Both the position numbers and the translations under genes were made by a program. This document shows positions 20,573 through 59,821 of a stretch of DNA of 59,821 bases, piece after piece. Numbering within the stretch: the stretch's first letter is position 1; each line of letters begins with the position of its first letter. The stretch is from NCBI GenBank assembly GCA_039683575.1, contig JBDKRC010000162.1, positions 1 through 59,821 of the forward strand, read 5' to 3'. This DNA is from Armatimonadia bacterium. Lineage in GTDB: Bacteria; Armatimonadota; Zipacnadia; Zipacnadales; UBA11051. Below the pieces are notes generated by a model, which was given only the letters and a program-made list of their open reading frames with translations, was not told the origin of the DNA and searched no databases.

Positions 20573-20608
20573 GGGAAGCTATCTCCTGCAGGGGATGATC
20601 CGAGTGGA

Positions 20609-23047
20609 CTACTTCAGGGTGACTATCGTGACGCCTTCGCCGCCCTCATTGTAGGGGGCGATGCCAAAGCTCTTTACCGCCTTGTGACTGCGCAGGTACT
20701 TCTGCAGGCCCTGCCGCAGGGCTCCCGTCCCCTTACCATGCAGTACCCGTACCTCGCTTACCCCCGAAAGCTGCGCGTCGTCAAAGTACTTCTCAAGCTC
20801 CGTGATCGCCTCATCCACCGTGGTCCCACGCAGGTCGATCTCCGGCTCGAAGGTCGGCGCCTTGCGCATCTGCATCGTGTGCGCCAGCCGCCGCGCCTCC
20901 TCCGACACCTCCGGCTCCAGCGGCTCAAGGTCACTCGCCAGGCTCTCAACCCGCATTCGGCCCACTTCGACGAGGAACAGGTTCTCCTTCAGGCGTTGCA
21001 CCACTTGCCCTTCGCGACCCAGCGAATGTACCCGCACGCGCTGCCCCGTCTCAATGGCTATGGGCGCGACAGGAGCCTTGGGAAGCTCAGGCGTGGGCGG
21101 GGCAGAGGGTTCCGGAGGCATGGCCTTCTGCGCCTCGGCGGCCCGCTCCCTCGCTTCGCGCTCAATCTGCTCGCGCAGCTTCGCAACCTGCTGCCGCTTC
21201 TCCTCAGTCACCTTCGACTGCCGCGGTTGCTTCTGCAACTCCGCAATGATCCGCCGCGCCTCTTCCTCGGCCTTGCGCACAATGTCGAGGGCCTGGTCGA
21301 ACCCGGACTCCATCGCCTCCGCCCGGCGGCTCTCGAGGTCCTCCAGGTTCTTCGCATACTCCTTGCGCAGCTTCTCCAGGTCCCGCTGGGCCTTGGTAGC
21401 CTGCTTGCGCTCGCGGTCCAGGTCGGCCTGGCTCTGGCGCATCTCTCTCAGTGCATCCTCAACGCTCACCCGCTCGCCGCCGAGATACTCCCGCGCCAGC
21501 CGCGTCAGCCGCTTCGGCAGCCCCAGCCGCTGTGCTATATCGAGCGCGTTGCTGCTGCCCGGCTGCCCGATCAGCAGCCGGTACGTCGGCTGCAGCGTCT
21601 TGATGTCGAATTCCACCGAGGCATTCTCCATGCCCTCGGTGGCGTAGGCAAAGACCTTCAGATCATTGTAATGCGTGGTCGCGACCGTCCGGCAGCCCGT
21701 CTCGTGAAGCTCCTCAAGTATCGCCTGCCCCAGCGCCGAGCCCTCGGCCGGGTCGGTCCCCGCGCCGAGTTCGTCGAGCAGCACCAGACAGTTCATTCGC
21801 TCCGCACTGGCTTGCGCTTCCTGTCTCCTGCGCCACGCGTCGGCGCGGCTGATGATTTTGATGATCTGCGTCAAATGCGAACTGAAGGTTGAGAGCGACT
21901 GCTCCAGGCTTTGCTCGTCGCCGATGTCGGCCCAGACGCTCTCGAAGACATTGATCTCCGACCCCGGGCCCGCGGGAATATGCAGCCCCGACTGTGCCAT
22001 CAGCGTCAGCAGCCCCACCGTCTTGAGCGAGACCGTCTTCCCGCCGGTGTTCGGCCCTGTGATCAGCAGCGTGTCAAACTTGTCGCCGATCCAGAAGTCA
22101 ATCGGCACGGCCTTCCCCGGTAAGAGCGGGTGTCGGGCCTGCCGCAGGCTCACAACCCCATCCTCGCGCACCAAAGGCTCGCTCCCGTCCATGCTCCGCG
22201 ACAGCCGTCCCCGGGCGGCGATGAAGTCCAGCACCGCCAGATTCGCCAAGTCCTGCCCCAGGTCCCCCGCCGCCGCACCCACGTGCAGCGTCAGTTCCCG
22301 CAGGATGCGCTTGATCTCGTTGACTATCTCAATCTCGACCTCGCGCATCTCATTGCCGATCTGCACGATCTCCATGGGCTCGATGAAGACGGTTGCCCCG
22401 CTGTCGGAGCGGTCATGCACGATGCCTGGGACCTGCGACTGCTTCTCACTGCGCACCGGCAGGCAGAACCGCCCCTCGCGCTGCACGATCATCGGGTCCT
22501 GCAGAAGCTCGCGGCTCATCGCCGCGCGCATGATCCCATCCATGCGCTCCCGCCCGCGGCCTTCGAGCACCCCCTGCCGCGAGTACAGCCGCGACAGGTC
22601 CTGCGACGCGTTCCGCCGCACCTCCCCATCCTCATCCAGCACGCGCTCGATCTCCTCGCGCAGCTTCGACTGGTCCGATAGCTGCTGCACGAGCCCATAC
22701 AGGTCCGGCGCCAGCTCCTCGGCCTCCTCGAAGTACTTCTGCAGCCGCTCGGCGCAGTAGATCAGCGCGCCGATCGCGAGGAACTCCGTCCCCGACAGTG
22801 CCACCTGCGCGCGCGACTTCTGCAACTGCTCTGATACGTCCGTCAGCCCACCCAGCGGCATCGTGCCATACCGGGAGATGGTTGCCGCCGCCTGTGTGGT
22901 CTCCCGCAGGCGCGCCCGCACGACCTCCGCCCGCGTCTCAGGCTGCAGCCTCAACGCCCGCTGCTTGCCCAGCGAAGAAGCCGCGCAATCGGCCAGCAGG
23001 CCCAGCACCTTGCCATATTCAAGTACTCGAAGTGTTCGTTCGTCCAT
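20609..23047 (-). CDS. mutS2: Endonuclease MutS2
   Basis: ITGPNTGGKT, DIGDEQSLEQSLSTFSSH, LLDELGAGTDP, C-terminal Smr domain (HGKGTG). Confidence 0.97.
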   Translation of the reverse strand: MDERTLRVLEYGKVLGLLADCAASSLGKQRALRLQPETRAEVVRARLRETTQAAATISRYGTMPLGGLTDVSEQLQKSRAQVALSGTEFLAIGALIYCAERLQKYFEEAEELAPDLYGLVQQLSDQSKLREEIERVLDEDGEVRRNASQDLSRLYSRQGVLEGRGRERMDGIMRAAMSRELLQDPMIVQREGRFCLPVRSEKQSQVPGIVHDRSDSGATVFIEPMEIVQIGNEMREVEIEIVNEIKRILRELTLHVGAAAGDLGQDLANLAVLDFIAARGRLSRSMDGSEPLVREDGVVSLRQARHPLLPGKAVPIDFWIGDKFDTLLITGPNTGGKTVSLKTVGLLTLMAQSGLHIPAGPGSEINVFESVWADIGDEQSLEQSLSTFSSHLTQIIKIISRADAWRRRQEAQASAERMNCLVLLDELGAGTDPAEGSALGQAILEELHETGCRTVATTHYNDLKVFAYATEGMENASVEFDIKTLQPTYRLLIGQPGSSNALDIAQRLGLPKRLTRLAREYLGGERVSVEDALREMRQSQADLDRERKQATKAQRDLEKLRKEYAKNLEDLESRRAEAMESGFDQALDIVRKAEEEARRIIAELQKQPRQSKVTEEKRQQVAKLREQIEREARERAAEAQKAMPPEPSAPPTPELPKAPVAPIAIETGQRVRVHSLGREGQVVQRLKENLFLVEVGRMRVESLASDLEPLEPEVSEEARRLAHTMQMRKAPTFEPEIDLRGTTVDEAITELEKYFDDAQLSGVSEVRVLHGKGTGALRQGLQKYLRSHKAVKSFGIAPYNEGGEGVTIVTLK

Positions 23048-26073: not shown

Positions 26074-26102
26074 TTGTGCATATCCTGAGTTTTGGGTATA
26101 TT
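26074..26102 (+). promoter_or_regulatory. Putative sigma70-type promoter in AT-rich spacer
   Basis: TTGTGC-N17-TATATT. Confidence 0.4.
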
Positions 26103-26157
26103 AACTCAATTACCCACCATTGTTGGTGGTCATTTTCTCGAAGTGAGGCACACGATC

Positions 26158-26811
26158 TTGAAGCGCGGTTTTACGCTCATCGAATTGTTGGTCGTTATCG
26201 CAATCATTGCGATTCTCGCTGCTATCCTGTTTCCGGTCTTCGCCAAGGCCCGGGAAAAGGCTCGGCAGTCCAGTTGTTTGAGCAACGTCAAGCAGATGAT
26301 GCTCGGCGTACTGTCCTACGCCCAGGATTATGACGAACGTTTGCCGTTCCAGTGGGAGAACATCACCGCTGCGCCGCACACCCCTCCCGGGCAGGCGGCC
26401 GCTACGACCTACTATACTTTCCCCGAGTTCCTTATGCCGTATACCAAGAACGACCAGATCTTCCAGTGCCCGTCCAAGCAGTTTGCGACGATGAACGCGC
26501 CCTATCTGACCTACCCGACAGCGTATGTCTACAATTCCAAGCTCGCGGGCCAGGCGCAGGGCGTAGTCATGCAGCCAGCCAACACTATCGCCATATTCGA
26601 CGGTTGGGGCGCGATGGACACCGGTGGCTGGACTGATGTCAGTCTCGCCAACACCATCAGCGGAACGCCCGACGCCTTCGCGACAGCGGCCGTCTGTACC
26701 ACCGTCCGCCGCCACAATGACGGCGCCAACGTGGGCTTCGTTGACGGCCACGCCAAGTGGCTCAACCGCGCGACCGCCAGCCAGATCACACCGGCTGAGG
26801 ACCCCGACTAA
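26158..26811 (+). CDS. Prepilin-type N-terminal cleavage/methylation, DUF1559-like, H-X9-DG protein (copy 1)
   Basis: [36 protein letters not shown] ... YAQDYDE ... [20 protein letters not shown] start inferred. Confidence 0.92.
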
Positions 26812-26833
26812 CCAACTTCGAGACCGTACCGAC

Positions 26834-26865
26834 AGCCGCCCCCAGACATGGGGGCGGCTTTTTTT
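26834..26865 (+). terminator. Intrinsic terminator
   Basis: AGCCGCCCCCA-gaca-TGGGGGCGGCT-TTTTTT. Confidence 0.88.
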
Positions 26866-26878
26866 CTTTGGGATGTTG

Positions 26879-26908
26879 GCAGGAAGAGGCCCGTGGGGAC
26901 GCGAATAC
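26879..26908 (+). promoter_or_regulatory. SigH-like promoter motif
   Basis: GCAGGA-N18-GAATAC immediately after a terminator. Confidence 0.55.
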
Positions 26909-26950
26909 TCACGTTCGCTGCACATCACGGTCCCGAGGGAGAGAGATCAG

Positions 26951-27631
26951 ATGAAACGTTCCGGCTTTACGCTAATTGAGTTACTGGTTGTGATCGCGAT
27001 CATCGCCATTCTGGCTGCGATACTGTTCCCGGTATTCGCCAAAGCCCGCGAAAAGGCACGCCAGACCAGTTGTCTGAGTAACATCAAACAGATTGCCGTC
27101 GGCTTGCTGTCCTACGCCCAGGATTACGACGAGCGCTTGCCGGTCAAGTGGTGGTCCTATACCCACATCCCTGCTGGCTATACCATGACCACCAGCTACA
27201 TGACCTGGGCCGAATGCATCAACCCCTACGTCAAGAACGACCAGCTTTTCCAGTGCGCCTCGCGTCAGTTCTCGCAAGCCCAGATGCCCTACAATACCTT
27301 CCCCTTCGCGTACAACTACAACGGTGCCAACGGGGTGCCCGCCGGCGACCTGCCCTCCTCCGGGTTGGACTGGTGCCCCCTCGGAACTATTGGCTCCCCC
27401 GCCACCACTATCGCGATCTATGACGGTTGGACCATGGATACGTGGTGGGTTGCTGCCGATCAGGCGGCTCTGATCAACCATCAGCCGGGGAGCGTGCCCT
27501 GGAACACAACCCACTGGGACATCGTCTTGCGTCACAACGACGGCGCGAACGTGGCCTTTGTGGACGGCCACGCCAAGTGGCTCAAGTCCGCCACGGCGAG
27601 CATGTTCACCCGAGCGGCCGACCCCGACTAG
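26951..27631 (+). CDS. Prepilin-type/DUF1559/H-X9-DG protein (copy 2)
   Basis: [12 protein letters not shown]...; [17 protein letters not shown]. Confidence 0.92.
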
Positions 27632-27660
27632 CCTTCGGCTTCGGGTGCCCTAGGCAGGGG

Positions 27661-27689
27661 TTTACACGGTAAGCCGTTGGTGGTATACA
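27661..27689 (+). promoter_or_regulatory. Putative sigma70-type promoter
   Basis: TTTACA-N17-TATACA with TG extension. Confidence 0.45.
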
Positions 27690-27735
27690 ACCGGTTGGCA
27701 TAGTCTGTCCAAGATCTCTGAAAGGCGGTCTGGTA

Positions 27736-28341
27736 ATGAAGAGACGTGGCTTCACTCTCATCGAGCTTCTGGTCGTCATCGCGATCATCGCGATTCTAGC
27801 CGCAATCCTGTTCCCTGTCTTCGCCAAGGCCCGTGAAAAGGCACGCCAAAGCAGTTGTCTTAGCAACCTGAAGCAGATCGGCCTCGCCGGCCTGTCCTAT
27901 GCCCAGGACTACGATGAGAAGTGCTGCCCGGGTTACCAGTACTACGGCGCCTGGGGCGACGCCAGCATGCTGGCCTGGTTCCCTGTCTACCTGAACCCCT
28001 ACGTCAAGAACTGGCAGCTCTTCAAGTGCCCCAGCGGTTCCTTCGCCGTCGCTGCCAACAGCGTTGGCCCGGCCTACGACCTCAGCTACGCCAGCAACTA
28101 CTACCAGGGCGAAGCCGCTCCTTGGGATGACACTCTCGGCATGCACCGGGCGGCACTTGGCTCCATTGCGGATCCCGCGAACACCGTCTGGTTCGCCGAC
28201 TGCACCATGGCTTACACTCACAATCGTTCCGTCTCAAAGCGCCACAATGACGGCTTCAACTCCGTTCTGGCCGATGGCCATGCCAAGTGGTACAAGAACG
28301 AGGAGCTGAAGATCAGCTTCTGGACCAAGGCTGCCGACTAG
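27736..28341 (+). CDS. Prepilin-type/DUF1559/H-X9-DG protein (copy 3)
   Basis: [12 protein letters not shown]...; [17 protein letters not shown]. Confidence 0.92.
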
Positions 28342-36513: not shown

Positions 36514-37482
36514 ATGTCTGCCGTCGCCGTGTCGCTAATCAACTGTCCTCCCGATTTAGACAAGCCACTGCGCCTCGCGTTGTTGCGGCACGACCTCCTG
36601 CCCGCCGACAAGCCCCACCTCCCGGCCGAGGTCATCATCCTCTGGCTCGACCGCCTCGACACCGCGGCCGACACCGTGCAATCCCTCCGCGCCGCTCAGC
36701 GCCATCCCCTCCCCGCCATCCTCGCGGTCGTCCCTGCGGCTGATGCCCCCGCCATCGCTGTTGCGGCCACCGTCGGCCTCGACGCCCTCACCACCTCCCG
36801 CGATCCCGCCGAGCTCGCCGCCCATGCCCGACTCCTCGCCAACTCCCGCGAGCGCTTCGCCGAGGCCAGCCCGCTCATGGGCCTTCCCGGCAACAATGCC
36901 CTGCAGCGCGAGATCGAGCGCCGCCTGCCCCTGCGCGGACAGCTCGCCGTCCTCGCCTTTGACGTCGACTTTTTCAAAAGCTATAATGACCGCTACGGCT
37001 ATGCCCGCGGTGACGGCCTGCTGGCCCTGGTCGGCTCAGCCATGCTGCAGGCGCTGAATAGCCTCGCCTCACCCGGCTGGTTTGCCGCCCACCTTGGCGG
37101 AGACGACTTCTTCTCCGTGGTCCACCCGCGCGAAGCCGAAGCCGTGGCCCGCCGCGCCATCGAAGTCTTCGAAGCTGGCCTGCCCTCGCTATATGATCCC
37201 GAAGACTGGCAGAGACAAACCATTATTGTCCGGAATCGTCGTGGTAAAATAGTAGAGCATCCCATCGTCTCTCTCACTGTCGCCGCGGTTACCAACGAAG
37301 CCGACGACCTGACCCATCCCGGTCAACTCGCCGCCGTACTCGCCGAACTCAAGAACTACGCCAAGTCGCTTCAGGGCAGCAACTACGTACCTGATCGTCG
37401 CCGCACCCATGACGTTGCCAGAGCCTTATCTTTGAAACCGTCGCAGCAAAGTTTATCCGCGGATGAGCCTGGAGGATCATGA
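36514..37482 (+). CDS. GGDEF-domain protein (GGDDF variant) with degenerate receiver-like N-terminus
   Basis: SPLMGLPGN, DVDFFKSYNDRYGYARGD, HLGGDDF. Confidence 0.85.
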   Translation: MSAVAVSLINCPPDLDKPLRLALLRHDLLPADKPHLPAEVIILWLDRLDTAADTVQSLRAAQRHPLPAILAVVPAADAPAIAVAATVGLDALTTSRDPAELAAHARLLANSRERFAEASPLMGLPGNNALQREIERRLPLRGQLAVLAFDVDFFKSYNDRYGYARGDGLLALVGSAMLQALNSLASPGWFAAHLGGDDFFSVVHPREAEAVARRAIEVFEAGLPSLYDPEDWQRQTIIVRNRRGKIVEHPIVSLTVAAVTNEADDLTHPGQLAAVLAELKNYAKSLQGSNYVPDRRRTHDVARALSLKPSQQSLSADEPGGS

Positions 37483-37856
37483 TGGCGAAGATCCTGTTCG
37501 TGGACGATGAGCGAGATTTGGTCCAGTGCGCGAAGGTCTTCTTCGAGTCCGCTGGCTATGAGTTCGTCGGCGCCTACGATGGCATGCAGGCCATCGAGAA
37601 GGTCAAAGAAGAGCGCCCCGACTTGGTCTGCCTGGATGTCAGCATGCCCCGCCTCACCGGCTGGGACGTCCTCCGCACGCTCCAGGACGATCCCGAGACC
37701 GCCGACATCCCCGTCATCATGCTTACGGCTCGAACTCAGGACCAGGACAAAGCCCGTGGCTGGGAACTCGGCTGCACCTTCTACCACACCAAGCCGTTCG
37801 ATTTTGACGAGCTTCTCGTACTAATCCAGCGCATCCTGGCCGCGACAGAGCTGTAG
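37479..37856 (+). CDS. Single-domain response regulator (CheY-like)
   Basis: ILFVDDE, PDLVCLDVSMP, IMLTA, TKPF. Confidence 0.93.
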   Translation: MMAKILFVDDERDLVQCAKVFFESAGYEFVGAYDGMQAIEKVKEERPDLVCLDVSMPRLTGWDVLRTLQDDPETADIPVIMLTARTQDQDKARGWELGCTFYHTKPFDFDELLVLIQRILAATEL

Positions 37857-43970: not shown

Positions 43971-45890
43971 ATGGACGACGCCGAGCCGATTGAGGAGAAG
44001 TCGCGGCCAAGTCACGTCCCCCCGCTGATCCGCTGGCTGCTACTGGCAGGGGCGCTGGCCGTCGTCATTGCCTGGCTGTGTAGCCCCGGCGGCCCCCTGT
44101 ACAACTATGAGCTAAAGACCCTTGACTCTCGTTTCCGCTTCCGCGCTGACGTCCGCGCGCCCCAGGATACCATCATCGTCGCCATCGACGAGCGCAGTGT
44201 GAACGATCCGCGGCTGGGCCGCTGGCCCTGGAGCCGGCAGTGGCATGCTAAGCTGATTCGCCGTCTGGCGGCTGAGAAGCCCCGGGCGATAGCTTTCGAC
44301 GTCATCTTCTCCGAACCTTCGACCCTCGCCGATGACTCGGCTCTTGCCTCAGCCTGCGCCTCCGCCAGGAATGTATACCTCAGCCTCCATGCCAGCGACC
44401 TCGCCAGCCGCAACCGCGACGCTCTCACGCGCTTCGCAGTGCGGCCGCAGATTGTCATCGGCCAGGACGTCTTGCCCACCTATGGCGGGCTGATCCCGCC
44501 CCTGCGCGAATTTGCCGCCGCTGCGGCTAGTGGCGGGGCAATCGCCGCTTCCACGGACCCTGATGGGGTCATGCGCCGCTGCTTCTTCCTCGCGCGCGAA
44601 ATCAAGAATGAGGGCTTCTATCCCACGCTCCCCCTGGCTGTGGTCGCCGGGACGGAGCGCTGGCCGTACTCCGGCATGCGGTTCAACCTGGGCAAGGAAG
44701 CGCGCCTGTCGCCGCAGACCATTGTGCCGCTGGACCAGAGAGGAAACGCCCTCATCAACTACCTTGGTCCAGCAGACACCGTCCCGCGCATTTCCTACGC
44801 GGATGTGCTGGATGGCCGGTTCAGCGCGGGCACCTTCCGCAACAAGATCGTCCTCGTGGGCTTTACGGCAGCAGGCCTGCTGGATGAGTACCCGACTCCT
44901 GTCCACCCCCGCATGGCAGGCGTTGAAGTCCACGCCAACGTCATTGAGAATCTGCTTCGGGGTGACTTCCTGACGCCCCGGTCGTTTGGGAACATGCTGG
45001 GGCTCACCCTCGTGCTGGCGCTGCTGACGGCTTTGGCCGCGGCCGCTCTTCGCCCAGTGATTGGGCTTGCGGTGCTCTTCCTGCTGTTGGGTGCGTATGA
45101 CGTGCTGGCTTTGCAGGCTTTCACCAAGTCTGGCGTAGTGTGGCCGGGCCTGGCTCCGCATCTGGCTCCACTGCTCAGCTTCGCCGGGATTGCGGTCTTC
45201 CGCCTTGCGACTGAGGAAGCGGGCCGCCGCCGCCTGCGGGACGAGTTTGGCCGCTATGCCCCGCCGCAGGTGGTAGCGCGCCTGGACAGCGGAGAGATGA
45301 AGGAGCGCGCCGCTGGCGTCAAGCGTGATATCACCGCCCTCTTTGCCGATGTCCGTGGCTTCACCAACTGGTCCGCCAACGCCGACCCGCACTCGGTCAT
45401 CAGCGTTCTTAACACCTACTTTGAGTCCATGACCCAACTGGCCTTCGACGTCGAGGGCACGGTGGACAATATCGTCGGGGACGAGATTTTCGTGACCTTC
45501 AATGCGATTGAGGACCAGGCAGACCACGTCCACCGGGCGGTTGACCTGGCCATCAACATGATCAGCGCCCTCGAGGGTCTCAATGAGCGCTGGATGGCTC
45601 AGGGCACACTGCCCGAGCCAATGCGCATAGGTATCGGCATCAACACCGGCGAGGCGCTGGTCGGCAGCCTTGGCTCAAGCATACGCACGCAGTACACCGT
45701 GTTGGGGCAGGTGGTGAACCTCGCGGCGAGGTTGCAGAGCCTGAACAAAGAACTCGGCACCACCATCCTGTGTACTAAGGAAGTTGCCGACGCAGTGGAG
45801 GGCACCGTGATCCTTCGCGACCACGGCGAGCATGCCATTCGCGGCCATCCGGTACCCGTAGAGGTTTTTGAGATCATCGGCCGGGCCTAG
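43971..45890 (+). CDS. CHASE2 sensor + class III adenylate/guanylate cyclase
   Basis: IVAIDERS..GRWPWSR, FDVIF, DPDGVMR, KIVLVG, GVEVHA, 3 TMs, FADVRGFT, VGDE, GIGINTG, VNLAARL. Confidence 0.93.
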   Translation: MDDAEPIEEKSRPSHVPPLIRWLLLAGALAVVIAWLCSPGGPLYNYELKTLDSRFRFRADVRAPQDTIIVAIDERSVNDPRLGRWPWSRQWHAKLIRRLAAEKPRAIAFDVIFSEPSTLADDSALASACASARNVYLSLHASDLASRNRDALTRFAVRPQIVIGQDVLPTYGGLIPPLREFAAAAASGGAIAASTDPDGVMRRCFFLAREIKNEGFYPTLPLAVVAGTERWPYSGMRFNLGKEARLSPQTIVPLDQRGNALINYLGPADTVPRISYADVLDGRFSAGTFRNKIVLVGFTAAGLLDEYPTPVHPRMAGVEVHANVIENLLRGDFLTPRSFGNMLGLTLVLALLTALAAAALRPVIGLAVLFLLLGAYDVLALQAFTKSGVVWPGLAPHLAPLLSFAGIAVFRLATEEAGRRRLRDEFGRYAPPQVVARLDSGEMKERAAGVKRDITALFADVRGFTNWSANADPHSVISVLNTYFESMTQLAFDVEGTVDNIVGDEIFVTFNAIEDQADHVHRAVDLAINMISALEGLNERWMAQGTLPEPMRIGIGINTGEALVGSLGSSIRTQYTVLGQVVNLAARLQSLNKELGTTILCTKEVADAVEGTVILRDHGEHAIRGHPVPVEVFEIIGRA

Positions 45891-45926: not shown

Positions 45927-46008
45927 CGCGTGGTAGGCACACTCCGTGTGCCGCACTACGGCAACGCGATGATACTGATTCCGGCACACGGAGTGTGCCT
46001 ACCACGCG
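45927..46008. repeat. Inverted REP doublet (REPIN-like), family C
   Basis: 27-bp CGCGTGGTAGGCACACTCCGTGTGCCG (45927-45953) and its perfect reverse complement (45982-46008), 28-bp spacer. Confidence 0.9.
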
Positions 46009-46105
46009 GTCAGGTGTGCCTTGCACGGGAACGAGGAGCTTGAAGTAGCCTGTAGTTGTGCAGAGTGGCAGGAGCGTAAGTCCGCACGGGTGCGCGGGGT
46101 GTGAG

Positions 46106-46651
46106 ATGCTCAGGGCACGGACGCTTGCGGAGTGGGAAGCCGAGCATAGCCCGGTCGAGGCGTTTACGCCTGACAGACCGGAAAGCCCGCCTCTGGACTG
46201 GCAGTGGGAGAGGCGGGCGGTGAAGTGGTATGCGCTCGTGGTGCTTTTGTTGGCGTGCCCGGTGCTGTGGCAGGTGCGCGAACAGCACCAGCAGCAGGTC
46301 TTTGTCAGGCGCGAGCAGCAGCGGAAGGCGATGCTGACGCTGGAGTTGCAGCCGCCGCCGACAGTGGCGCGAGGACCGGCGGAACGCCGGTCAGGAGGCG
46401 GGTCCGCGGGTACCTGGGTCGTGACAGGGGCGGGTGACGCGACCTACAACGGCACCTACAGGAAGCGCGGCGCACTCAACGGCCAGCCGGCGTACACCAA
46501 TGGCAGCAAGTGGCTGTGGTACATTGGAGGCCATTGGCTTTTGACAGAGGAGCGAGGGGTGGCTGATCCTGACGCGCCGTATGGTAGCAGCCCCGGGGAA
46601 CTGCCGGGCAACCCCTGGGTGCCGCTGCCTCCGTACAGGCCGCCATCCTGA
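46106..46651 (+). CDS. Hypothetical single-TM protein with small Gly/Tyr/Trp-rich C-terminal domain
   Basis: TM (WYALVVLLLACPVLW); VTGAGDATYNGTY...NGQPAY..WLWY; start uncertain. Confidence 0.5.
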   Translation: MLRARTLAEWEAEHSPVEAFTPDRPESPPLDWQWERRAVKWYALVVLLLACPVLWQVREQHQQQVFVRREQQRKAMLTLELQPPPTVARGPAERRSGGGSAGTWVVTGAGDATYNGTYRKRGALNGQPAYTNGSKWLWYIGGHWLLTEERGVADPDAPYGSSPGELPGNPWVPLPPYRPPS

Positions 46652-46749: not shown

Positions 46750-48957
46750 TTGCAGTCGTACAGAATCGTCATCTTCCCTGATCGGGAAGCGAGGTGCATC
46801 TGTAGGGCCCGCGTCATCTGCGGTCGCTGCCGTCACGAGCATCCCCTTGGGGCCCGGGTCTGCGAGGCCTGTGGGAGCAAACTGTTCGCCCTCGAACTGC
46901 GCCGCGCAATGGGTCGCAACCCGTGGAACTGGGCCCAGGGCACGGCTGTGGGGCAGATGGCCCCCTTCGCTCTCGTCATCCTCCTGCTGATCTCCGCCGC
47001 ACTGCTGAACGTCTCGCCCGGGGCGTGGCGCCAACTCCTGCTCAGCTTTGGGCTGGTGGGCCTGGTCACGCTTGGCGTGACCTTCCCCCTGATGAAGGGG
47101 CACTACGATTTCAGCGCCGGGTCGCTCGCCGGCCTGTGCGCCTGCACGGCCGCGGTGTTGTCACCATATGGCTTCGGCGCCGCGATTGCGGGCGCGCTCG
47201 CAGTCGGATGTCTGGTGGGCCTGGTCAATGGGTACATGGTGGGCTGGACACGCATCCCGTCGGCGATGGTGACGGTGATGACAGGGGCGATTGCCCTGCA
47301 ACTCACCATCTACGCGACCTCCCGCGCCACAACGGTGGTTACCGACCCGCTGCTGCTATCGCTGGCAGACACGGACGTGGGCGGCATTCCCGTCATCCTC
47401 GCGCTGTTTGTGGTGGCTCTCATGGCCGCCCGGGTACTGTTCGGGCATCCGACGTTCACCCCGGTTGGGCAAGCGCAGAACCATCTGCAAGCCGCCGACT
47501 TCGCCGCTCCCCCCAATGTTCTGTTGAGCTTCCTGGTCAGTGGCCTCGCGGCAGGACTGGCGGGGCTGCTGATTGCCGGCTCGAGCATGAGCATCATCGG
47601 CTCCGGCGGACAGATGGTCTGGATGCTTACGCCACTGACGGCTGCGCTGATCGGGGGCGGCTCGGTCACCGCCGGCACAGGGAACCTGCGTACGGCGACA
47701 ATCGGCGCAGCGTCGATTGCGCTGCTGAACTGGCTGGCGACGCAGCTTCGCATGCCCATCTCGGGGCCGATCATCGAGGCCCCGCTGCTGGTCGCCGGAC
47801 TGCTGGCGGATCGCTGGAAGAACATGACGTGGTACATGATCGGCCAGGCCCGCCGGGGGAACCTGCTGGCCTTGCCTGATGAGATGCAGCTACCGATGGT
47901 CGTCCGCGTGTGGCGTCGCACCACGTGGCCGATGCGCATCGCCAGCGCGCTGATGCTGATTGCTGTGGCGGTTGGGCTCTACGCCTACATCGGGTACTAC
48001 GTCGTGGGGCGCGTTCCTGAAGGGACTGCCATTGTCAGCCGCAGCGTGGGGACGGTGGAGGTGATCCGCTACGGCACCAGAGAGCCGGTAGCCGTGGCGA
48101 GTGGGAGCAGCCTGAAACCCGGCGACATGGTGGTCACCGGCGATCGGTCCAGCGCAGACCTCCGCTTTGCCGATGGAAGCGAGATGCAGGTCTTCCAAAA
48201 TGGCGAGCTGTACATCAGGGAGCTTTCCACCTCGCGTACGGGCGCGACCACGACGCAACTCCACGTCCCCTTTGGAACCTTCTTTGCCAAGGTGCGCAAG
48301 CTGGTGAGCCGCGATTCGAGCTTCAGCGTGCAGACGCCGGTGCTGACCCTGGGGGTGCGCGGTACGGCTTTCCAGGTGTCGGTGGGGCAGGGCCAGGGCG
48401 ATGTGGCGGTCGGCGAGGGCGCGGTGGTCATCAGCAGGCGGGTGAAGGTCGAGGAAGCAGGTTTGACACGGTTCTATGAGGATGCCCGTGAGGTCGAAGC
48501 CGGTAAGCAGGCCCAGGCGGGCGAGAATACCATTGTCCGGCCAATGACCAAGGGACAGCTTGATCTCCTGCAAAGCACTGAAGATCAACTCGCCCAGCAG
48601 AGCAAACAGACGCGTCTGGCAGTGCTGCACGCGCGGGCGTACCGCGGGGTCTGGGTTCTCGTGATCGCGCTGTACCTTATCGCCATGATCTGCCTGAAGC
48701 CGGCGCCTCAGGTGTACATCGGGGATCTCGTCGCCGAGAGGGCGAGGATCTTCACCGCCGGCCATGCGCGGACGGCGGCGGATTCGCCTAAGGCGGCTGC
48801 GCTGGCTCAGATGTTCATGCGCACGGGGAATGTTGAGCAGGCCCGCTATGAAATCCAGCAGATCCTGGAGCATGACCCCAATAGCGAGTACGGCAAGTGG
48901 GCGCAGAGCTTCTGGCTGGACATGGAGCGGCAACGACGGCGGGGCCTGCGGGGTTGA
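46750..48957 (+). CDS. Fusion: zinc ribbon + RbsC-type ABC permease + FecR domain + TPR-like tail
   Basis: CGRC..CEACG; GHYDFSAGS, GLVNG..IPS..VT, AALIGGGS..GTG (permease); GDMVVTG..ADLRFADGS, VQTP..GVRGT.F, VAVGEGAV (FecR); ILEHDPNS TPR-like end. Confidence 0.85.
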   Translation: MQSYRIVIFPDREARCICRARVICGRCRHEHPLGARVCEACGSKLFALELRRAMGRNPWNWAQGTAVGQMAPFALVILLLISAALLNVSPGAWRQLLLSFGLVGLVTLGVTFPLMKGHYDFSAGSLAGLCACTAAVLSPYGFGAAIAGALAVGCLVGLVNGYMVGWTRIPSAMVTVMTGAIALQLTIYATSRATTVVTDPLLLSLADTDVGGIPVILALFVVALMAARVLFGHPTFTPVGQAQNHLQAADFAAPPNVLLSFLVSGLAAGLAGLLIAGSSMSIIGSGGQMVWMLTPLTAALIGGGSVTAGTGNLRTATIGAASIALLNWLATQLRMPISGPIIEAPLLVAGLLADRWKNMTWYMIGQARRGNLLALPDEMQLPMVVRVWRRTTWPMRIASALMLIAVAVGLYAYIGYYVVGRVPEGTAIVSRSVGTVEVIRYGTREPVAVASGSSLKPGDMVVTGDRSSADLRFADGSEMQVFQNGELYIRELSTSRTGATTTQLHVPFGTFFAKVRKLVSRDSSFSVQTPVLTLGVRGTAFQVSVGQGQGDVAVGEGAVVISRRVKVEEAGLTRFYEDAREVEAGKQAQAGENTIVRPMTKGQLDLLQSTEDQLAQQSKQTRLAVLHARAYRGVWVLVIALYLIAMICLKPAPQVYIGDLVAERARIFTAGHARTAADSPKAAALAQMFMRTGNVEQARYEIQQILEHDPNSEYGKWAQSFWLDMERQRRRGLRG

Positions 48958-55076: not shown

Positions 55077-55673
55077 ATGGCAACTTCAGACGTCCAACCT
55101 GGCAGCCCACCCGCAGCAACGGCCGGCACCGCCCCAACCACGTGCTACTATTGCGAGGCACCGCTACCGGCAGGCGCGCAGGTTTGCAGCGAGTGTGGCC
55201 GCAAGCAGTACCGGGTGTGCTTTTGTGGCACCACCGCTCTCGCCGGACTGGAAAACTGTCCCTCCTGCGGCGCCGACTGGAGCGAGAGGATAAAGGTACG
55301 CCGCCGGAGCCGCGCTGTTCATATCAAGCCCCGCAAGCTCCTGAGAAGCGCCTTGATCGGCGCCCTCGTCACGATTGTCGCCACGGCCATATTCAATTTG
55401 CTGGTAACCGCCCTGGCTGAGCGCAGCATCCAGGCAGAGGCGTTACCGGCAGCCTTCTCGGCCAAGCTCTACTACGCCTGGCTCACGCTCAGTTCCGCCA
55501 CTTCCGTGCTTTTCAGCCGCCTTCTCGGCGGCGCCGGCTCATTCTTGCTGATCGCCTTGCTCGGGGGGACCGTCGGCACCCTGTTCTACCTCATCCACAT
55601 CGGCTATCTTCGCTTCTCCAGGCAGCAGGAACACGGCAAACATGGCACCCTGCGCCGCCGTCGTCGGCGCTGA
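55077..55673 (+). CDS. Double zinc-ribbon membrane protein
   Basis: CYYC..CSECG..CFCG..CPSCG, 2-3 TMs, poly-Arg C-terminus. Confidence 0.75.
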   Translation: MATSDVQPGSPPAATAGTAPTTCYYCEAPLPAGAQVCSECGRKQYRVCFCGTTALAGLENCPSCGADWSERIKVRRRSRAVHIKPRKLLRSALIGALVTIVATAIFNLLVTALAERSIQAEALPAAFSAKLYYAWLTLSSATSVLFSRLLGGAGSFLLIALLGGTVGTLFYLIHIGYLRFSRQQEHGKHGTLRRRRRR

Positions 55674-55687
55674 TTGAACCAGTAACC

Positions 55688-56572
55688 ATGGCACTCGACC
55701 TCGGCCCCACTAACCAGGAGTCTGCTGCCCCGCGCCCGTGGACGGCCTCTGTTCCGCCGCTGGCGCTGCTTGTCGTGCTTGTGCTCGTGGCCGCCTTCAA
55801 CCAGCATTTTGTGTGGCTGTGGCAGAAGGGCTGGCATAACGAGTACTACGGCCATGGCTTCCTGATCCCGATCATCTGCGCCTACCTGATCTACCGGCGC
55901 AAGGACCACCTGGCCACGCTGCCGCGAACCGGTTGCTGGATCGGGCTTCCAGTGCTCCTGGCAGGGCTGGCGCTGCACATCCTGGCCATCATCCAGGACG
56001 TGAACTTCCCACAGGGCTTCGCCTTCGTCACGGTGATCATCGGCCTGACGATCTGGCTCTATGGCTGGCCCGTCGCCCGCGACATCGCCTTCCCGTTGGC
56101 GTTCCTGCTCTTCATGGTCCCGATGGGGCGGGTTCTGGTAGACACTTTTGCGCAGCCGATGCAGCTCATAAGCGCCAGAGTGGCGGGACATGCCGCCGGG
56201 TTCCTGGGCATTCCGGTAGCCATTGATGGCACGACTCTGCGCATTCCGGATTACACGTTTGAGGTGGGAATACCCTGTAGCGGCCTGAAGTCCGCTATCG
56301 CGATGACTGCCCTTGGTGCGCTGTATGCATACGTGCTGCAGGGGACCTGGCAACAGCGGGCAGCGATCTTTGCCATGTCTCTACCGGCCGCGCTGGTCGC
56401 CAACGCGGTACGCATCTGGCTGACGCTTGTTCTGGCCATCTCCTTCGGGCCCTCGGCGGCCGAGGGGTTCTTTCACACTCTGTCGGGCATGGTGGTCTTT
56501 GTGCTTGCCCTGCTCGGGCTTTTCGGCTTTGGGAGCCTGATTCATTGCACGACGTTACGCGAAGATATCTGA
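55688..56572 (+). CDS. Exosortase (EpsH/archaeosortase family)
   Basis: YGHGFLIP, FLLFMVP; catalytic triad PCSG, NAVRI, FFH. Confidence 0.93.
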   Translation: MALDLGPTNQESAAPRPWTASVPPLALLVVLVLVAAFNQHFVWLWQKGWHNEYYGHGFLIPIICAYLIYRRKDHLATLPRTGCWIGLPVLLAGLALHILAIIQDVNFPQGFAFVTVIIGLTIWLYGWPVARDIAFPLAFLLFMVPMGRVLVDTFAQPMQLISARVAGHAAGFLGIPVAIDGTTLRIPDYTFEVGIPCSGLKSAIAMTALGALYAYVLQGTWQQRAAIFAMSLPAALVANAVRIWLTLVLAISFGPSAAEGFFHTLSGMVVFVLALLGLFGFGSLIHCTTLREDI

Positions 56573-57186
56573 TCGCGCTGGTTTTGCTTGGCGGCGCGGC
56601 GGTGTGGGCGAACCTGCTATGGTCCCGCCAGGCACCCGAGGCCGCCTACCAGCCGCGTTTCAGGGAGATCCCGCTGCAGATAGGGAACCTCAAGGGCGAG
56701 AAGATACCGGTGGAGCAGCGCATCTTCAACTACCTTGGCGCCGATGCCATGGAAGAGATCATGTACACCGGTGAGGATCGCAGCGTGCGTCTGAGCGTGG
56801 TGTACGGCACGGACTGGCGGGCGGTGCATTCGCCGCTGTCCTGCCTGCCCCAGATGGGCTGGCAGGTAGACAAGCCGCAGATGGTGGACCTCCCGGCGCC
56901 GCCCGGCACGCCTCATGCAGGGCCGCTCCATGGGCAGATTCTGCTCGCCCACAAGGGACAGCAGCGGCAGGCTGTACTGTACGTATTCGCCCACAAGGGC
57001 GGCACTACGGGCGATTGGGTGGCACAAGGGTGGGCGGTCAACCGCACCCCACGGGGGACAGGCGGTTTGATGATCTCAACGAGCACGCCAATAGCACACG
57101 AAGACGATACCGCTGCAGCCAATATGCTCAAGGAGGTGTGCACCAGCGTCTATCTGCCGGCTACGAGCTTCTGGTACACAAAGTGA
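56545..57186 (+). CDS. Exosortase-associated EpsI family protein
   Basis: IPLQIG..GE, LGAD, VHSPLSCLPQMGW; start uncertain, overlaps the exosortase. Confidence 0.82.
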   Translation: MHDVTRRYLIALVLLGGAAVWANLLWSRQAPEAAYQPRFREIPLQIGNLKGEKIPVEQRIFNYLGADAMEEIMYTGEDRSVRLSVVYGTDWRAVHSPLSCLPQMGWQVDKPQMVDLPAPPGTPHAGPLHGQILLAHKGQQRQAVLYVFAHKGGTTGDWVAQGWAVNRTPRGTGGLMISTSTPIAHEDDTAAANMLKEVCTSVYLPATSFWYTK

Positions 57187-57261
57187 GAGTTCCTCAACCA
57201 TACCAGTAGCGCGGGCCGCCTGCTTTACTGAGTACCACCCGCGGCAAAGACGCTAAACATC

Positions 57262-57945
57262 ATGGCACAAGCTAACCTCTCCAGCCTCCGCAGCCCCGTG
57301 AGCCACCAGCAGACTATCTTTGCCCCGCGGACTATGGTCTCGCGGTCGTACCAGGTGGCGAAGCGCGCCCTGGACGTCGTAGGGGCCTCACTGGCCCTGC
57401 TGGTCCTCGGGCTACCGATGCTGCTCGTGGCCATCGCGATCCGGTTGGAATCGCGTGGTCCCGCGCTGTTCTTCCAGTGGCGCCTCGGTGAGAACGGCAT
57501 TCCCTTCCGCTTCTGCAAGTTCCGCTCGATGGTGGCCAATGCCGAGGAGGAGCGTGCGAACCTGGAGCGGCAGAACGAGGCCGAGGGGCCGATCTTCAAG
57601 ATTCGGCGCGACCCACGGATTACGCGCGTTGGCCGCTGGCTGCGGCGCACCAGCTTTGACGAGACCCCCCAGCTCTTCCACGTGCTCTCCGGCCAGATGA
57701 GTCTCGTCGGGCCGCGACCGCCGCTGCTGGAAGAGGTAGAAGGCTATGAGCCCTGGCAGCGCGAAAGACTCGCTGTCCGTCCCGGCCTCACCTGCATCTG
57801 GCAAGTCAGTGGGCGTAGTGACATTCCGTTCGAGCGCTGGGTTGAACTTGACATCGTCTATGTCCGCAATCGCAGCTTCTGGCTCGACCTTAAGATCCTG
57901 CTGCTCACGATACCGGCCGTTCTGACGGGCCGCGGCGCGTACTAA
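57262..57945 (+). CDS. Priming sugar (phosphoglycosyl) transferase, Bac_transf family
   Basis: KRALD, KFRSM, DPRITRVG, DETPQL, MSLVGPRP, PGLTCIWQVSGR. Confidence 0.95.
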   Translation: MAQANLSSLRSPVSHQQTIFAPRTMVSRSYQVAKRALDVVGASLALLVLGLPMLLVAIAIRLESRGPALFFQWRLGENGIPFRFCKFRSMVANAEEERANLERQNEAEGPIFKIRRDPRITRVGRWLRRTSFDETPQLFHVLSGQMSLVGPRPPLLEEVEGYEPWQRERLAVRPGLTCIWQVSGRSDIPFERWVELDIVYVRNRSFWLDLKILLLTIPAVLTGRGAY

Positions 57946-57984: not shown

Positions 57985-58833
57985 ATGGCCCGCAAACCCC
58001 TCCTGACGATCGTTTTCGGCCTCGTCTTCGCTCTGCTCGCTGCTGTGCTGGTGGAGCACCTCTATGAGCCCAAGTCCGGCCTCGGCAACCTCCTGTGGCG
58101 CTTTGAGCTTGGCGCCTACGGCGTCCGCCTCTCCACCCGCGCCAGCCGCTTTCGCGATGACATTGTAATCGTTGCCGTGGATGACGAGTCCCTGCAGCAA
58201 CTCGGGGTATGGCCATGGCCGCGAGGGCTTCACGCGCAACTGCTTGACCGCCTCAACGAGGCCGGCGCCCGCCTCATTGGCCTCGACATGCTCTTCTCGG
58301 ATCTCTCCGGCAGCCTTCAGAGCGTTGATCCCGCCACCGGACAGCTATCCCTGCAGCCGGCGGTCTCGGAAGGTGATGAGGCGCTTGCTGGCGCTTTGAA
58401 GCGCTACCCGAGGGTCGTTCTGGCCGGGCAGATCACGAATGATCTGACCACCCGCGGCGAGCAAGTCGCTTCCGGGGTGAGCAGCGTCGCCTTTCCCCAT
58501 GAGCTTTTCGCCCCCAGCGAAGACCGGATTGGCCTGACCAACATCCCCCGCGACCTCGACTCGGTCGTGCGTCGCGCCTGGCTGACGCTCAGCCACCAGG
58601 ACGAGCCCTACTACACTCTCCCAGTCGCTCTCGCCGCCGCCCAGATGAAGCGTACTCCGGCCGCTGTGGCCGCCGAGACGCTGCGGCTCGGCTATGCCGG
58701 TCATCCCTTCCTCGGCGGCAACAGCATTCTCGTGAACTTCTGCGGGCCGGCGGGGACGTTCAAGCGCGTGCCATACTACCAGGTCCTGGCGGGGCTGACG
58801 CCACCGGAGACCTTCCGGGGCAAGATCGTGCTC
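57985..58833 (+). pseudogene. C-terminally truncated CHASE2 sensor gene (frame continues to 58968 through the antisense of the MTase)
   Basis: IVIVAVDDES..GVWPWPR, GLDMLF, DLDSVVR; similarity to the 43971 CHASE2 stops at GKIVL, with no TP/GVEVHA, TMs or output domain. Confidence 0.7.
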
Positions 58834-58850
58834 GGCTTGAGCCACTCTTC

Positions 58851-59612
58851 TCAGGGCACCGGCTCCCACGGAACGCCCTCCGCCACCTCGGTCTGGCTGG
58901 CCCAGGCCTCCAGCATGGTCTCCGTCATGCCGATCTCGTCTTCGTCCAGTTCGACCAGTCTCACCTGATGCCCGAGCTGCGGCAGCCTCTTGCGGACCAC
59001 CAGCAGGCAGGTCTTCACGGTGGTCCCTGAGCCGCGAAAGACGTTCCGGGGTAGCCCCAGCACGGCCTCGACGGTGTGCTCGCGCCATATCACCTCGCGT
59101 TGCTTGACCCAGCGGGCATTGGCGACAAAGCCCTCCGGCAGGACCATTGCCAGCAACCCGCCTGGTTTCAGCAGCCGTAGGGAGCGTTCGAGAAACCAAA
59201 GCTCCCGCGGCAGCCGCTCCGGGCGCCGGGAGAGACGCCACCAGTGGTAATCGAGGCAAAGCTGGTCTAGATGAGCTGGTTCGGGTGCTCCGGCAAAGGG
59301 GGGATTGCCCACTACGACGTCAAACCGGCCGTCACCATCCCCAACCAGGCCGTCGGCGACGGCCAGATGCACCGCGCCCAGCCCGCTCTCCTGCCAAACG
59401 GCACGCAACCTCACGTCGGCATCCAGGCCATATACGCGTCTGGGGGCAAACCCGGCACGCACGGCGCCGCTGAGGAAGGCGCCCTCGCCACAACTCAGAT
59501 CAAGAAGCCGGCCCGCGCTGACCTGCGGATCGAGCCACCGCAGGGCACTGAACGTCAGGTCCACGACGGCCGCTGGCGTGAAATATTGGCCCAGGCTCTT
59601 CTCCTGCTGCAT
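58851..59612 (-). CDS. Orphan N6-adenine DNA methyltransferase (N6_Mtase/HsdM-like core)
   Basis: LGQYFTP, LLDLSCGEGAFL (motif I), GNPPF (motif IV), LKPGG.LAMVLP; GGGAGG RBS. Confidence 0.85.
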   Translation of the reverse strand: MQQEKSLGQYFTPAAVVDLTFSALRWLDPQVSAGRLLDLSCGEGAFLSGAVRAGFAPRRVYGLDADVRLRAVWQESGLGAVHLAVADGLVGDGDGRFDVVVGNPPFAGAPEPAHLDQLCLDYHWWRLSRRPERLPRELWFLERSLRLLKPGGLLAMVLPEGFVANARWVKQREVIWREHTVEAVLGLPRNVFRGSGTTVKTCLLVVRKRLPQLGHQVRLVELDEDEIGMTETMLEAWASQTEVAEGVPWEPVP

Positions 59613-59821
59613 CAACTTCCTCCCGCTTAGCGTCGGGTTCACCTTCGCACATAAGCGTATCGGCTGTCAATCTGCGGGTCATGTCGAGCCGTTCGGGCTC
59701 TTCCTCAATTAGTGTGGGTAGAACCTATTGACATGTCGTAAGTACGTGCTGCAGCGAGGGCAACTGTCCGCATCGCTGGAGTATTTTGAGCATGAAGAAT
59801 TGGACGTCGCGGAAGCCGTAG

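Follow-up and report, generated by a model that had tools for sequence, protein, structure and literature searches.

The 59,821-nucleotide contig JBDKRC010000162.1 of an Armatimonadia bacterium (assembly GCA_039683575.1), called here the window, carries on its forward strand a gene for a membrane-bound class III nucleotide cyclase with a CHASE2 sensor domain. Downstream from it is a long open reading frame (ORF) that encodes, in this order, a zinc ribbon, a CUT2/RbsC-type permease domain, a FecR domain set between two transmembrane (TM) helices, and a TPR-like tail. A preliminary description of the window singled out this second product as a fusion protein but overlooked the cyclase upstream. 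Taken together, the two genes look like a conserved signalling cassette in which a transporter part has been re-used for signalling, and the fusion protein belongs in the known CHASE2-FecR(-TPR) type of module. This overall picture is one that we infer from sequence, models, and gene order. The cyclase, the fusion ORF, and the parts of its product are as follows.

43971..45890, forward strand: CHASE2-sensor class III nucleotide cyclase, 639 aa, membrane protein (Pfam CHASE2, E 4e-61; Guanylate_cyc, E 1e-22)
46750..48957, forward strand: fusion ORF, 735 codons counted from TTG 46750, with the orthologous start position at 46804
46819..46884, forward strand: zinc ribbon CxxC-x11-CxxC (CGRC-x11-CEAC), residues 24-45, presumed cytoplasmic
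46945..47823, forward strand: permease-like domain, residues 66-358 (Pfam, hhalign, Foldseek)
47443..47508, forward strand: remnant of the cytoplasmic coupling ("EAA") loop, residues 232-253 (profile alignment and family alignment)
47824..47925, forward strand: conserved basic linker, residues 359-392, consensus RRGNLLALPxEMxLP, presumed cytoplasmic
47926..48009, forward strand: TM helix leading to the periplasmic domain, residues 393-420 (hydropathy peak 397-415, model helix 393-420)
48010..48549, forward strand: FecR-like all-beta domain, residues 421-600 (Pfam, NCBIfam, Foldseek), presumed periplasmic
48358..48366, forward strand: R537-G538-T539, invariant, candidate Gly-Thr self-cleavage site
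48550..48705, forward strand: long stalk helix running into the second TM segment, residues 601-652 (model helix 601-649, hydropathy peak 634-652)
48718..48951, forward strand: TPR-like helical tail, residues 657-734 (four model helices, 10/75 positions invariant), presumed cytoplasmic

The 735-codon frame is open throughout, and its third-position GC (0.81) is like that of its neighbours in a window of 63.8% GC. Two domains are recognised by Pfam above the cut-off: FecR at residues 461-559 (E 2e-12, 47.8 bits against a cut-off of 24) and BPD_transp_2 at residues 96-335 (E 1e-8, 35.1 bits against 26.8). In the window copy the ribbon (Zn_Ribbon_1/DZR, residues 24-45) scores 18.4 bits and the tail (TPR_19, residues 677-714) 16 bits, both under the cut-off of 25; the tail passes it in the relatives P0036 (25.2) and P0043 (27.1). 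The four-part fusion that the preliminary description had read from the ORF is thus upheld, its ribbon and TPR parts at sub-threshold scores. In NCBIfam, the best match of the FecR part is LipL45 (E 2e-24, residues 424-570), at 86 bits against a cut-off of 350. The permease part resembles permeases of the AraH, GguB, LsrC/D, and AlsC types (E 3e-14 to 1e-8), with scores far under every equivalog cut-off (53 bits against 378 for AraH). Sequence searches of the PDB with the family profile, the FecR stretch, and the profile of true permeases returned no matches, so that neither a CUT2 permease nor a near relative of the FecR part offered a solved structure as reference, and the structural likenesses given below are hence fold matches only. 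They come from an AlphaFold2 model built on 26 relatives, with a mean predicted local distance difference test score (pLDDT) of 77.7 and a predicted template-modelling score (pTM) of 0.70. The model begins with a small beta ribbon, followed by a helical bundle (67-368), a low-confidence linker (361-390), and a helix (393-420). Its C-terminal half consists of an all-beta domain (427-598), a single long helix (601-649), and four short helices (657-734).

The fusion is natural and conserved across independent assemblies. A search of 5.8 billion proteins returns 33 clusters at 41-91% identity, and both PF04773 and PF02653 are found in 30 of them. The clusters without both domains are P0014, P0033, and P0034, the last two being N- or C-terminally incomplete. 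The next match is already an ordinary ABC permease, 29% identical across 31% of the query. The 185,579 species genomes searched contain five related loci (L001-L005), all in metagenome-assembled genomes of Armatimonadota, and the fusion is intact in four of them. Relatives thus keep the fusion, and the initial worry that it might be a chimera is set aside by this conservation from assembly to assembly. Every source name that bears an organism reads Armatimonadota, Armatimonadetes, or Candidatus Zipacnadales: the fusion is restricted to Armatimonadota as far as named records show. An exhaustive HMMER scan of 1.84 billion representatives gave 7370 matches at E<=1e-3 and just 16 at E<=1e-30. Distant relatives at 20-37% identity retain the ribbon, the permease-like part, and FecR. 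Among these, P0036-P0038 (34-37% identity in the wider alignment A4) have the same four-part architecture, and P0043 and P0044 are more divergent full-length relatives. There is also a form of about 1000 residues (P0046, P0052, P0054, P0156) made of ribbon, permease-like part, one TM helix, and FecR, in which a long C-terminal extension replaces the second TM helix and the TPR tail. Three short HMMER matches (P0039, P0042, P0048) begin or end inside domains, which fits contig-end fragments better than split genes. A further homologue search with the A4 profile yielded the same close family and a few ordinary permeases, and no distant fusions.

The permease-like part is homologous to genuine transporter domains. 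When the close family alignment (A1) is compared with an alignment of 35 genuine CUT2 permeases (A2) by hhalign, the match has a probability of 99.9 and an E of 2e-37 over 294 columns. In a Foldseek comparison with the PDB, the helical bundle is closest to the membrane domains of type II importers: BtuC (2qi9/1l7v), BhuU (5b58), PsaC (7kyp), FhuB (7lb8), and HmuU (4g1u). The probabilities of these matches are 0.87-1.00, and the template-modelling score TMt reaches 0.51 (for BtuC, BhuU, and PsaC, probability about 1 and TMt 0.43-0.51). In type II importers the coupling loop lies between the sixth and seventh helices, and the remnant in the fusion protein is positioned at the same place. However, where the permeases read FGRxxYAxGGNxxAAxxxGIxV in the profile alignment, the fusion family reads F----xPVGxAxSRxxAAxRxSA. 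This corresponds to a deletion of four residues and to the loss of the G-R, Y, G-N, and G-I motif positions in all 26 aligned members. The degeneracy that the preliminary description had pointed out is therefore a family trait, and the loop is still less recognisable in the distant relatives of A4. The structural motifs YDFSAG and GGGSVxxGxG are kept.

Despite this loss, no other large region of the protein is as constrained as the permease-like part: it has 64/293 positions invariant, with D120, W291, P295, and the GGGS motif among the invariant residues, and a mean identity of 0.65, compared with 13/99 and 0.58 in the FecR Pfam region and with mean identities of 0.43 and 0.41 in the two single TM helices. 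A maximum-likelihood tree separates 35 genuine permeases from 35 fused domains by one branch (Shimodaira-Hasegawa-like approximate likelihood ratio test, SH-aLRT, 99), and the close fusion family forms a clade (SH-aLRT 97). The tree is unrooted, comes from a quick search, and has long branches on several distant rows; a single origin of the fused domains is not contradicted by it, which is no proof of one.

Pfam recognises no ABC_tran family and no periplasmic sugar-binding family among the 52 window ORFs scanned, in keeping with the earlier remark that genes of both kinds are lacking there. Nor is any ABC_tran or binding-protein family found among 35 neighbour ORFs of the five related loci. 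The scanned ORFs were picked by a codon-position GC heuristic and not by a full gene call, so that small or atypical genes may be missed. Since the fusion is conserved, its coupling loop degenerate, and no ATPase or binding-protein gene is nearby, a non-transport role is the better reading of the permease fold. Judged on its sequence, the permease part is probably no usual transporter subunit, and we consider it likely that ATP-driven transport is not the job of the fusion protein. The part also appears to be more than a mere anchor, as the extent of its invariant positions exceeds what a simple anchor needs. The first proposal for this protein was that of a permease serving as a sensor or scaffold. 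Its non-transport half is thereby favoured; a sensor or scaffold is what the fold most likely is, although this second half and the mechanism behind it are inferred.

The all-beta domain resembles the periplasmic domains of anti-sigma regulators, namely BDI_1681 (4m0n, 4m0h) and PupR (6ovk_R), with Foldseek E values of 6e-5 to 5.5e-4 overall and of 6e-5 to 2e-4 for 4m0n and 6ovk_R. Its R537-G538-T539 motif, reported as intact in the window copy, turns out to be invariant in 26/26 close sequences and in 12/12 sequences of the set that includes distant ones. In the model, Gly-Thr sits in the loop between strands 533-536 and 540-545. Across the 12 sequences of A4, V536-R537-G538-T539 and ten permease positions are invariant, and the ribbon cysteines are nearly so: C24, C27, C38, and C41 reach 90% or more in A4, as do C38 and C41 in A1. 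The linker at residues 359-392 has the highest mean identity of all regions (0.74), yet its pLDDT is below 50 at residues 361-390. Such a profile, highly conserved and poorly modelled, is as expected of a docking motif, and we speculate that the linker might dock onto the TPR tail or onto the cytoplasmic domain of the cyclase.

The likely topology follows from charge and from the coupling-loop remnant. Basic residues abound in the N-terminal segment (mean K+R of 6.2) and in the linker 359-392 (4.8), while the loop 193-214 is acidic and has almost no K/R. These features, together with the place of the coupling-loop remnant, suggest a set of ten helices that starts and ends on the cytoplasmic side, followed by an outward helix at 393-420, a periplasmic FecR domain, an inward helix at about 634-652, and a cytoplasmic TPR tail. 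The sequence WRR at residues 388-390, just before the TM helix, had raised the idea of a twin-arginine (Tat)-type insertion as in E. coli FecR; it was rejected because the RR is not conserved in A1.

In all five related loci, a gene of 641-669 residues with CHASE2 and Guanylate_cyc domains lies directly upstream from the fusion gene on the same strand. The gaps between the two are of 134, 37, 32, and 4 nucleotides, with an 8-nucleotide overlap in the remaining locus. No other neighbour is common to the five loci among the 35 ORFs scanned, and no phosphodiesterase is found next to the cassette in the window ORFs or in these loci. Close orthologues of the cyclase make up about 35 clusters, with 47-93% identity. 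In 14 of the 33 fusion clusters the longest contig is equal in size to that of one of the 35 closest cyclase clusters, an indirect sign that fusion and cyclase are on the same contigs. We therefore regard the fusion protein as very probably a partner of the CHASE2 cyclase.

The cyclase itself is well modelled by AlphaFold2 (pLDDT 86.5), and its CHASE2 domain occupies about residues 38-340, between TM helices. Only its catalytic domain was matched by Foldseek, to CyaB (3r5g, TMt 0.88), with no solved CHASE2 structure among the matches listed. The metal-binding Asp residues D460 and D504 are invariant, as are N583 and R587, which keeps the transition-state residues. In class III cyclases, a Lys/Asp pair specifies ATP. 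At the corresponding positions the window cyclase has N500 and Q580. The Asn in GTVDNIVGDE is present in the window cyclase and in all nine close orthologues aligned, whereas 16 more distant CHASE2 cyclases have Lys (15) or Glu (1) at the same position. In the YTVLGx.VN motif, Gln is found in 8/10 sequences, the others having one Ser and one Pro, as compared with Asp in 16/16 distant CHASE2 cyclases. With both of the usual base-specifying residues replaced, and if the Lys/Asp rule holds, this clade may use a non-canonical nucleotide as its substrate. Q589 of the window cyclase was noted together with N500 and Q580.

Contact between the two proteins was explored by co-folding CHASE2 (38-340) with the FecR region (421-633). 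The median score is 0.60 (runs of 0.58, 0.62, and 0.60), which the method rates as weak support, and the best of three controls scores 0.00. Agreement between the runs extends to at least 97% of contacts, the pLDDT of the partner is at least 79, and no interface is reported. In the calibration of the method, the mark was reached by 58/80 solved complexes and by 2/110 mismatched pairs; a score of 0.60 or less was seen in 7 of those 80 solved complexes and in both passing mismatches. Custom alignments were used here, so these calibration counts hold roughly. Because the gene pairing already made binding likely, the co-fold raises the odds only modestly, and a direct contact between FecR and CHASE2 is in our judgement an even matter.

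A working model can be proposed from these elements. The fusion protein would be an inner-membrane protein of about 12 TM helices that partners the CHASE2 cyclase encoded upstream, with the ribbon, the basic linker, and the TPR tail facing the cytoplasm. Its FecR domain would lie in the periplasm, the same compartment as the CHASE2 domain, where it would contact CHASE2 and set the output of the cyclase, analogous to what has been proposed for the separate FecR and TPR proteins of other CHASE2 clusters. The permease-derived domain would no longer work with an ATPase and would serve as a membrane-embedded input or as a scaffold, perhaps with a small ligand still bound along the former route of translocation. 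Periplasmic self-cleavage as in FecR/FoxR may occur at the invariant Gly-Thr. The protein would then consist of two halves, each anchored in the membrane and joined to the other through the beta domain, in an association that could depend on a signal. That the fusion is a dedicated partner of the cyclase, with its permease fold as a membrane input or scaffold, is the best explanation we have, and we give it about an even chance of being right as a whole. Ligand sensing by the permease fold, taken by itself, is rather doubtful. Least probable among these proposals is the complete "transceptor": an ATPase-less ABC membrane domain acting as a true ligand receptor, relayed through a self-cleaving FecR domain to a CHASE2 cyclase with a possibly non-canonical product. 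We consider it unlikely.

Other readings of the same protein can be put forward. It may still be a working subunit of an ABC importer, in which a permease homodimer works with an ATPase and a binding protein whose genes lie elsewhere, and FecR and TPR are a regulatory add-on. The BPD_transp_2 match over the Pfam cut-off, the retained YDFSAG and GGGSVxxGxG motifs, and the many invariant positions would suit this, and RbsC does act as a homodimer; ATPases, moreover, may be shared or unlinked. Nevertheless, the loop to which an ATPase would couple is shortened by four residues and degenerate in all 26 aligned members and more so in the distant ones. The 52 window ORFs and 35 locus ORFs include neither of the missing genes, and the fused domains sit on their own branch, apart from the sampled true permeases; an importer is thus highly improbable. 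A role in regulated proteolysis that does not involve the cyclase is hard to credit as well. Here the protein would be an anti-sigma-like transducer, in which Gly-Thr cleavage and site-2 proteolysis free the zinc ribbon. The invariant RGT and the fold matches to PupR and BDI_1681 speak for it, and a cleavage cascade is documented for FecR itself (PMC12036975). Against it are the roughly ten TM helices that separate the ribbon from FecR, unlike the single-pass FecR, and the fact that the only conserved neighbour is the cyclase. Moreover, Pfam finds no sigma-70/extracytoplasmic function (ECF) sigma factor and no TonB-dependent transducer or receptor family among the scanned ORFs of the window and the five loci.

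A closer rival keeps the cyclase partnership, with the same pairing evidence, and reduces the permease-like domain to a mere membrane anchor or dimerisation platform without ligand or sensing. Class III cyclases and the membrane domains of type II importers are both dimers, and this analysis gave no sign of a ligand site. The high conservation of the permease-like part relative to the single TM helices (64/293 positions invariant; 0.65 against 0.43 and 0.41) is more than an anchor would seem to need, but it would also suit a specific protein-protein interface. We look on this reading as a tentative alternative, on the unlikely side. The last one, an assembly chimera or a dead gene, could draw on an AGG codon at the position of the orthologous ATG, on a record in the ESM Atlas that starts at M54, and on a deleted copy in L005. 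It is barely credible, given the full-length architecture, which about 30 independent clusters of several origins share with 4/5 genome loci, the 735 open codons with a GC3 of 0.81 as in the neighbours, and the aspect of P0039, P0042, and P0048, which look like contig-end fragments rather than split genes.

Several points weigh against the cyclase-partner explanation. The topology, with FecR outside and TPR inside, was deduced from hydropathy, charge counts, and analogy. The binding of CHASE2 to FecR has weak support from the model. The neighbourhood is known for five loci and the window. An ATPase could be encoded elsewhere, as the view is that of a 60-kb window and of loci of at most about 22 kb, and the strong conservation of the permease core would equally suit a working channel. 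The copy in L005 (2143-3646) aligns only to residues 20-192 and 461-731, in two overlapping ORFs; it represents an internal deletion, a frameshift, or an artefact of misassembly or co-assembly. Finally, the window copy departs from the other loci. Its cyclase and fusion genes are 859-913 nucleotides apart, with a hairpin and an extra ORF between them:

45927-45953 and 45982-46008, no strand assigned: perfect 27-nucleotide inverted repeat with a 28-nucleotide loop, 37 nucleotides past the cyclase stop codon; unique in the window, with 0 expected by chance
46058..46651, forward strand: putative 197-codon ORF between cyclase and fusion, with one hydrophobic stretch and no Pfam family

The inverted repeat may act as a terminator or be a small mobile element between the cassette genes, and the extra ORF has no counterpart in the five related loci. 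Furthermore, where 5/5 loci have an ATG start codon after a GAGG-like site (46791-46806), the window has AGG at 46804. The sole in-frame canonical starts that it offers are TTG 46750, not preceded by a GAGG-like sequence, and ATG 46909, from which the product would lack the ribbon. In the ESM Atlas, which gave no usable look-alike, the fusion protein is recorded from M54 on, past the zinc ribbon. The AGG could reflect a sequencing error, the use of TTG 46750, or reduced expression. The window copy may thus be uncoupled from its cyclase or poorly translated.

Some other features of the window and of the loci touch on the same types of domain. A second CHASE2 ORF (57985-58968, forward strand) covers only profile positions 13-192 of 257 and has a low-complexity tail. 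It overlaps an N6 DNA methylase ORF (58851-59642, reverse strand) and may be a truncated or disrupted gene. The stretch 55077-57945 (forward strand) encodes exosortase EpsH, an EpsI-like DUF3485 protein, and a sugar transferase, preceded by a membrane protein with a double zinc ribbon (55077-55673); the product of 55077-55673 is the second N-terminal zinc-ribbon membrane protein in the window. About 6 kb upstream from the cassette, at 36514-37856 (forward strand), a GGDEF-domain gene and a stand-alone receiver-domain gene share an overlap of 4 nucleotides; they make up a further second-messenger module. In L004, a TPR-CHAT protein is encoded about 7.5 kb downstream from the cassette (19729-22095, reverse strand), and this is seen in one locus only. 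Three consecutive ORFs at 26092-28341 (forward strand) carry prepilin N_methyl motifs and DUF1559 (Pfam SBP_bac_10). In view of the prepilin motifs and of the Pfam description of the family as DUF1559, their products are no ABC solute-binding proteins, whatever the name SBP_bac_10 suggests.

CHASE2 is a widespread sensor domain whose ligand is, to our knowledge, not known, and whose recurring FecR and TPR neighbours have no assigned mechanism that we are aware of. The cassette offers a compact two-gene system where the relationship between CHASE2 and FecR could be tested directly. If the proposed explanation is true, the cassette would also be a plain example of strong selection acting on a permease fold that lacks its ATPase-coupling loop, and the altered specificity residues of the cyclase add a second testable question. 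The transceptor, were it true, would give CHASE2 enzymes a sensory input of a new kind. The architecture had been described as one not recognised. No paper describing the combination of FecR and BPD_transp_2 (PF04773 and PF02653) was found in the literature, and this part of the remark stands. However, relatives already carry automatic annotations, as "FecR domain-containing protein" or "ribose transport system permease protein". A paper on Armatimonadota (PMC10290634) contains no mention of cyclase, cyclic AMP (cAMP), FecR, signal transduction, or ABC transporter, and PMC8844925 and PMC13012738 proved to have no bearing on the subject.

The nearest known systems are the CHASE2 clusters of other phyla. 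In Campylobacterota, CHASE2 adenylate cyclases mostly cluster with a phosphodiesterase, a FecR-domain protein, and a TPR protein (PMC9239204). In the BiofilmReg operon of Burkholderia, a response regulator and a CHASE2 histidine kinase flank a LysM-FecR protein (PMC5192318). The cAMP regulon of S. meliloti comprises CHASE2 cyclases, the FecR-domain protein SMc02177, and a TPR protein (PMC5498481), and these cyclases get their signal via the outer-membrane envelope protein NsrA (PMC13001267). In magnetotactic bacteria, a CHASE2 cyclase gene comes after the one for MtxA, a TPR protein (PMC4439547). As in these clusters, the gene for a CHASE2 enzyme adjoins a FecR component here (5/5 loci), and there is a putative TPR component. 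The difference is that FecR and TPR are on one polypeptide with two TM anchors, fused to a ribbon and to a degenerate ten-helix permease, whereas the clusters in the literature have separate lipoprotein or outer-membrane FecR proteins and, in Campylobacterota, a phosphodiesterase as well.

The sigma regulators FecR, FoxR, and PupR share the FecR domain with its conserved Gly-Thr, and the fold found here is close to that of PupR (6ovk_R) and BDI_1681 (4m0n). FecR self-cleaves at G181/T182 (PMC12036975), and a GT motif in an inter-strand loop is described for LipL45 and FoxR, with processing reported for LipL45 (PMC13719327). Yet the N-terminus of the fusion protein is a ribbon and a permease rather than an anti-sigma domain, the protein is polytopic instead of single-pass, and it probably acts with a cyclase. 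In NCBIfam the FecR part scores best with LipL45 of Leptospira, which has the GT motif but is a lipoprotein without permease, ribbon, or TPR. With the CUT2 permeases (RbsC, AraH, LsrC/D), the fusion protein shares a homologous membrane domain whose fold is nearest to the type II importer domains; it differs from them in its degenerate coupling loop, the lack of ATPase and binding-protein genes nearby, and the fused signalling modules. Transporter folds kept for sensing or regulation instead of bulk transport are found in UhpC, in yeast Snf3/Rgt2, in the SLC5 domain of CbrA, and in Amt-domain sensor kinases. These derive from secondary transporters or channels, while we know of no ATPase-less ABC permease domain fused to FecR. 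The clustering of CHASE2, FecR, and TPR is thus already known, and what is new is the fusion of FecR and TPR to a zinc ribbon and to an ATPase-less, degenerate permease.

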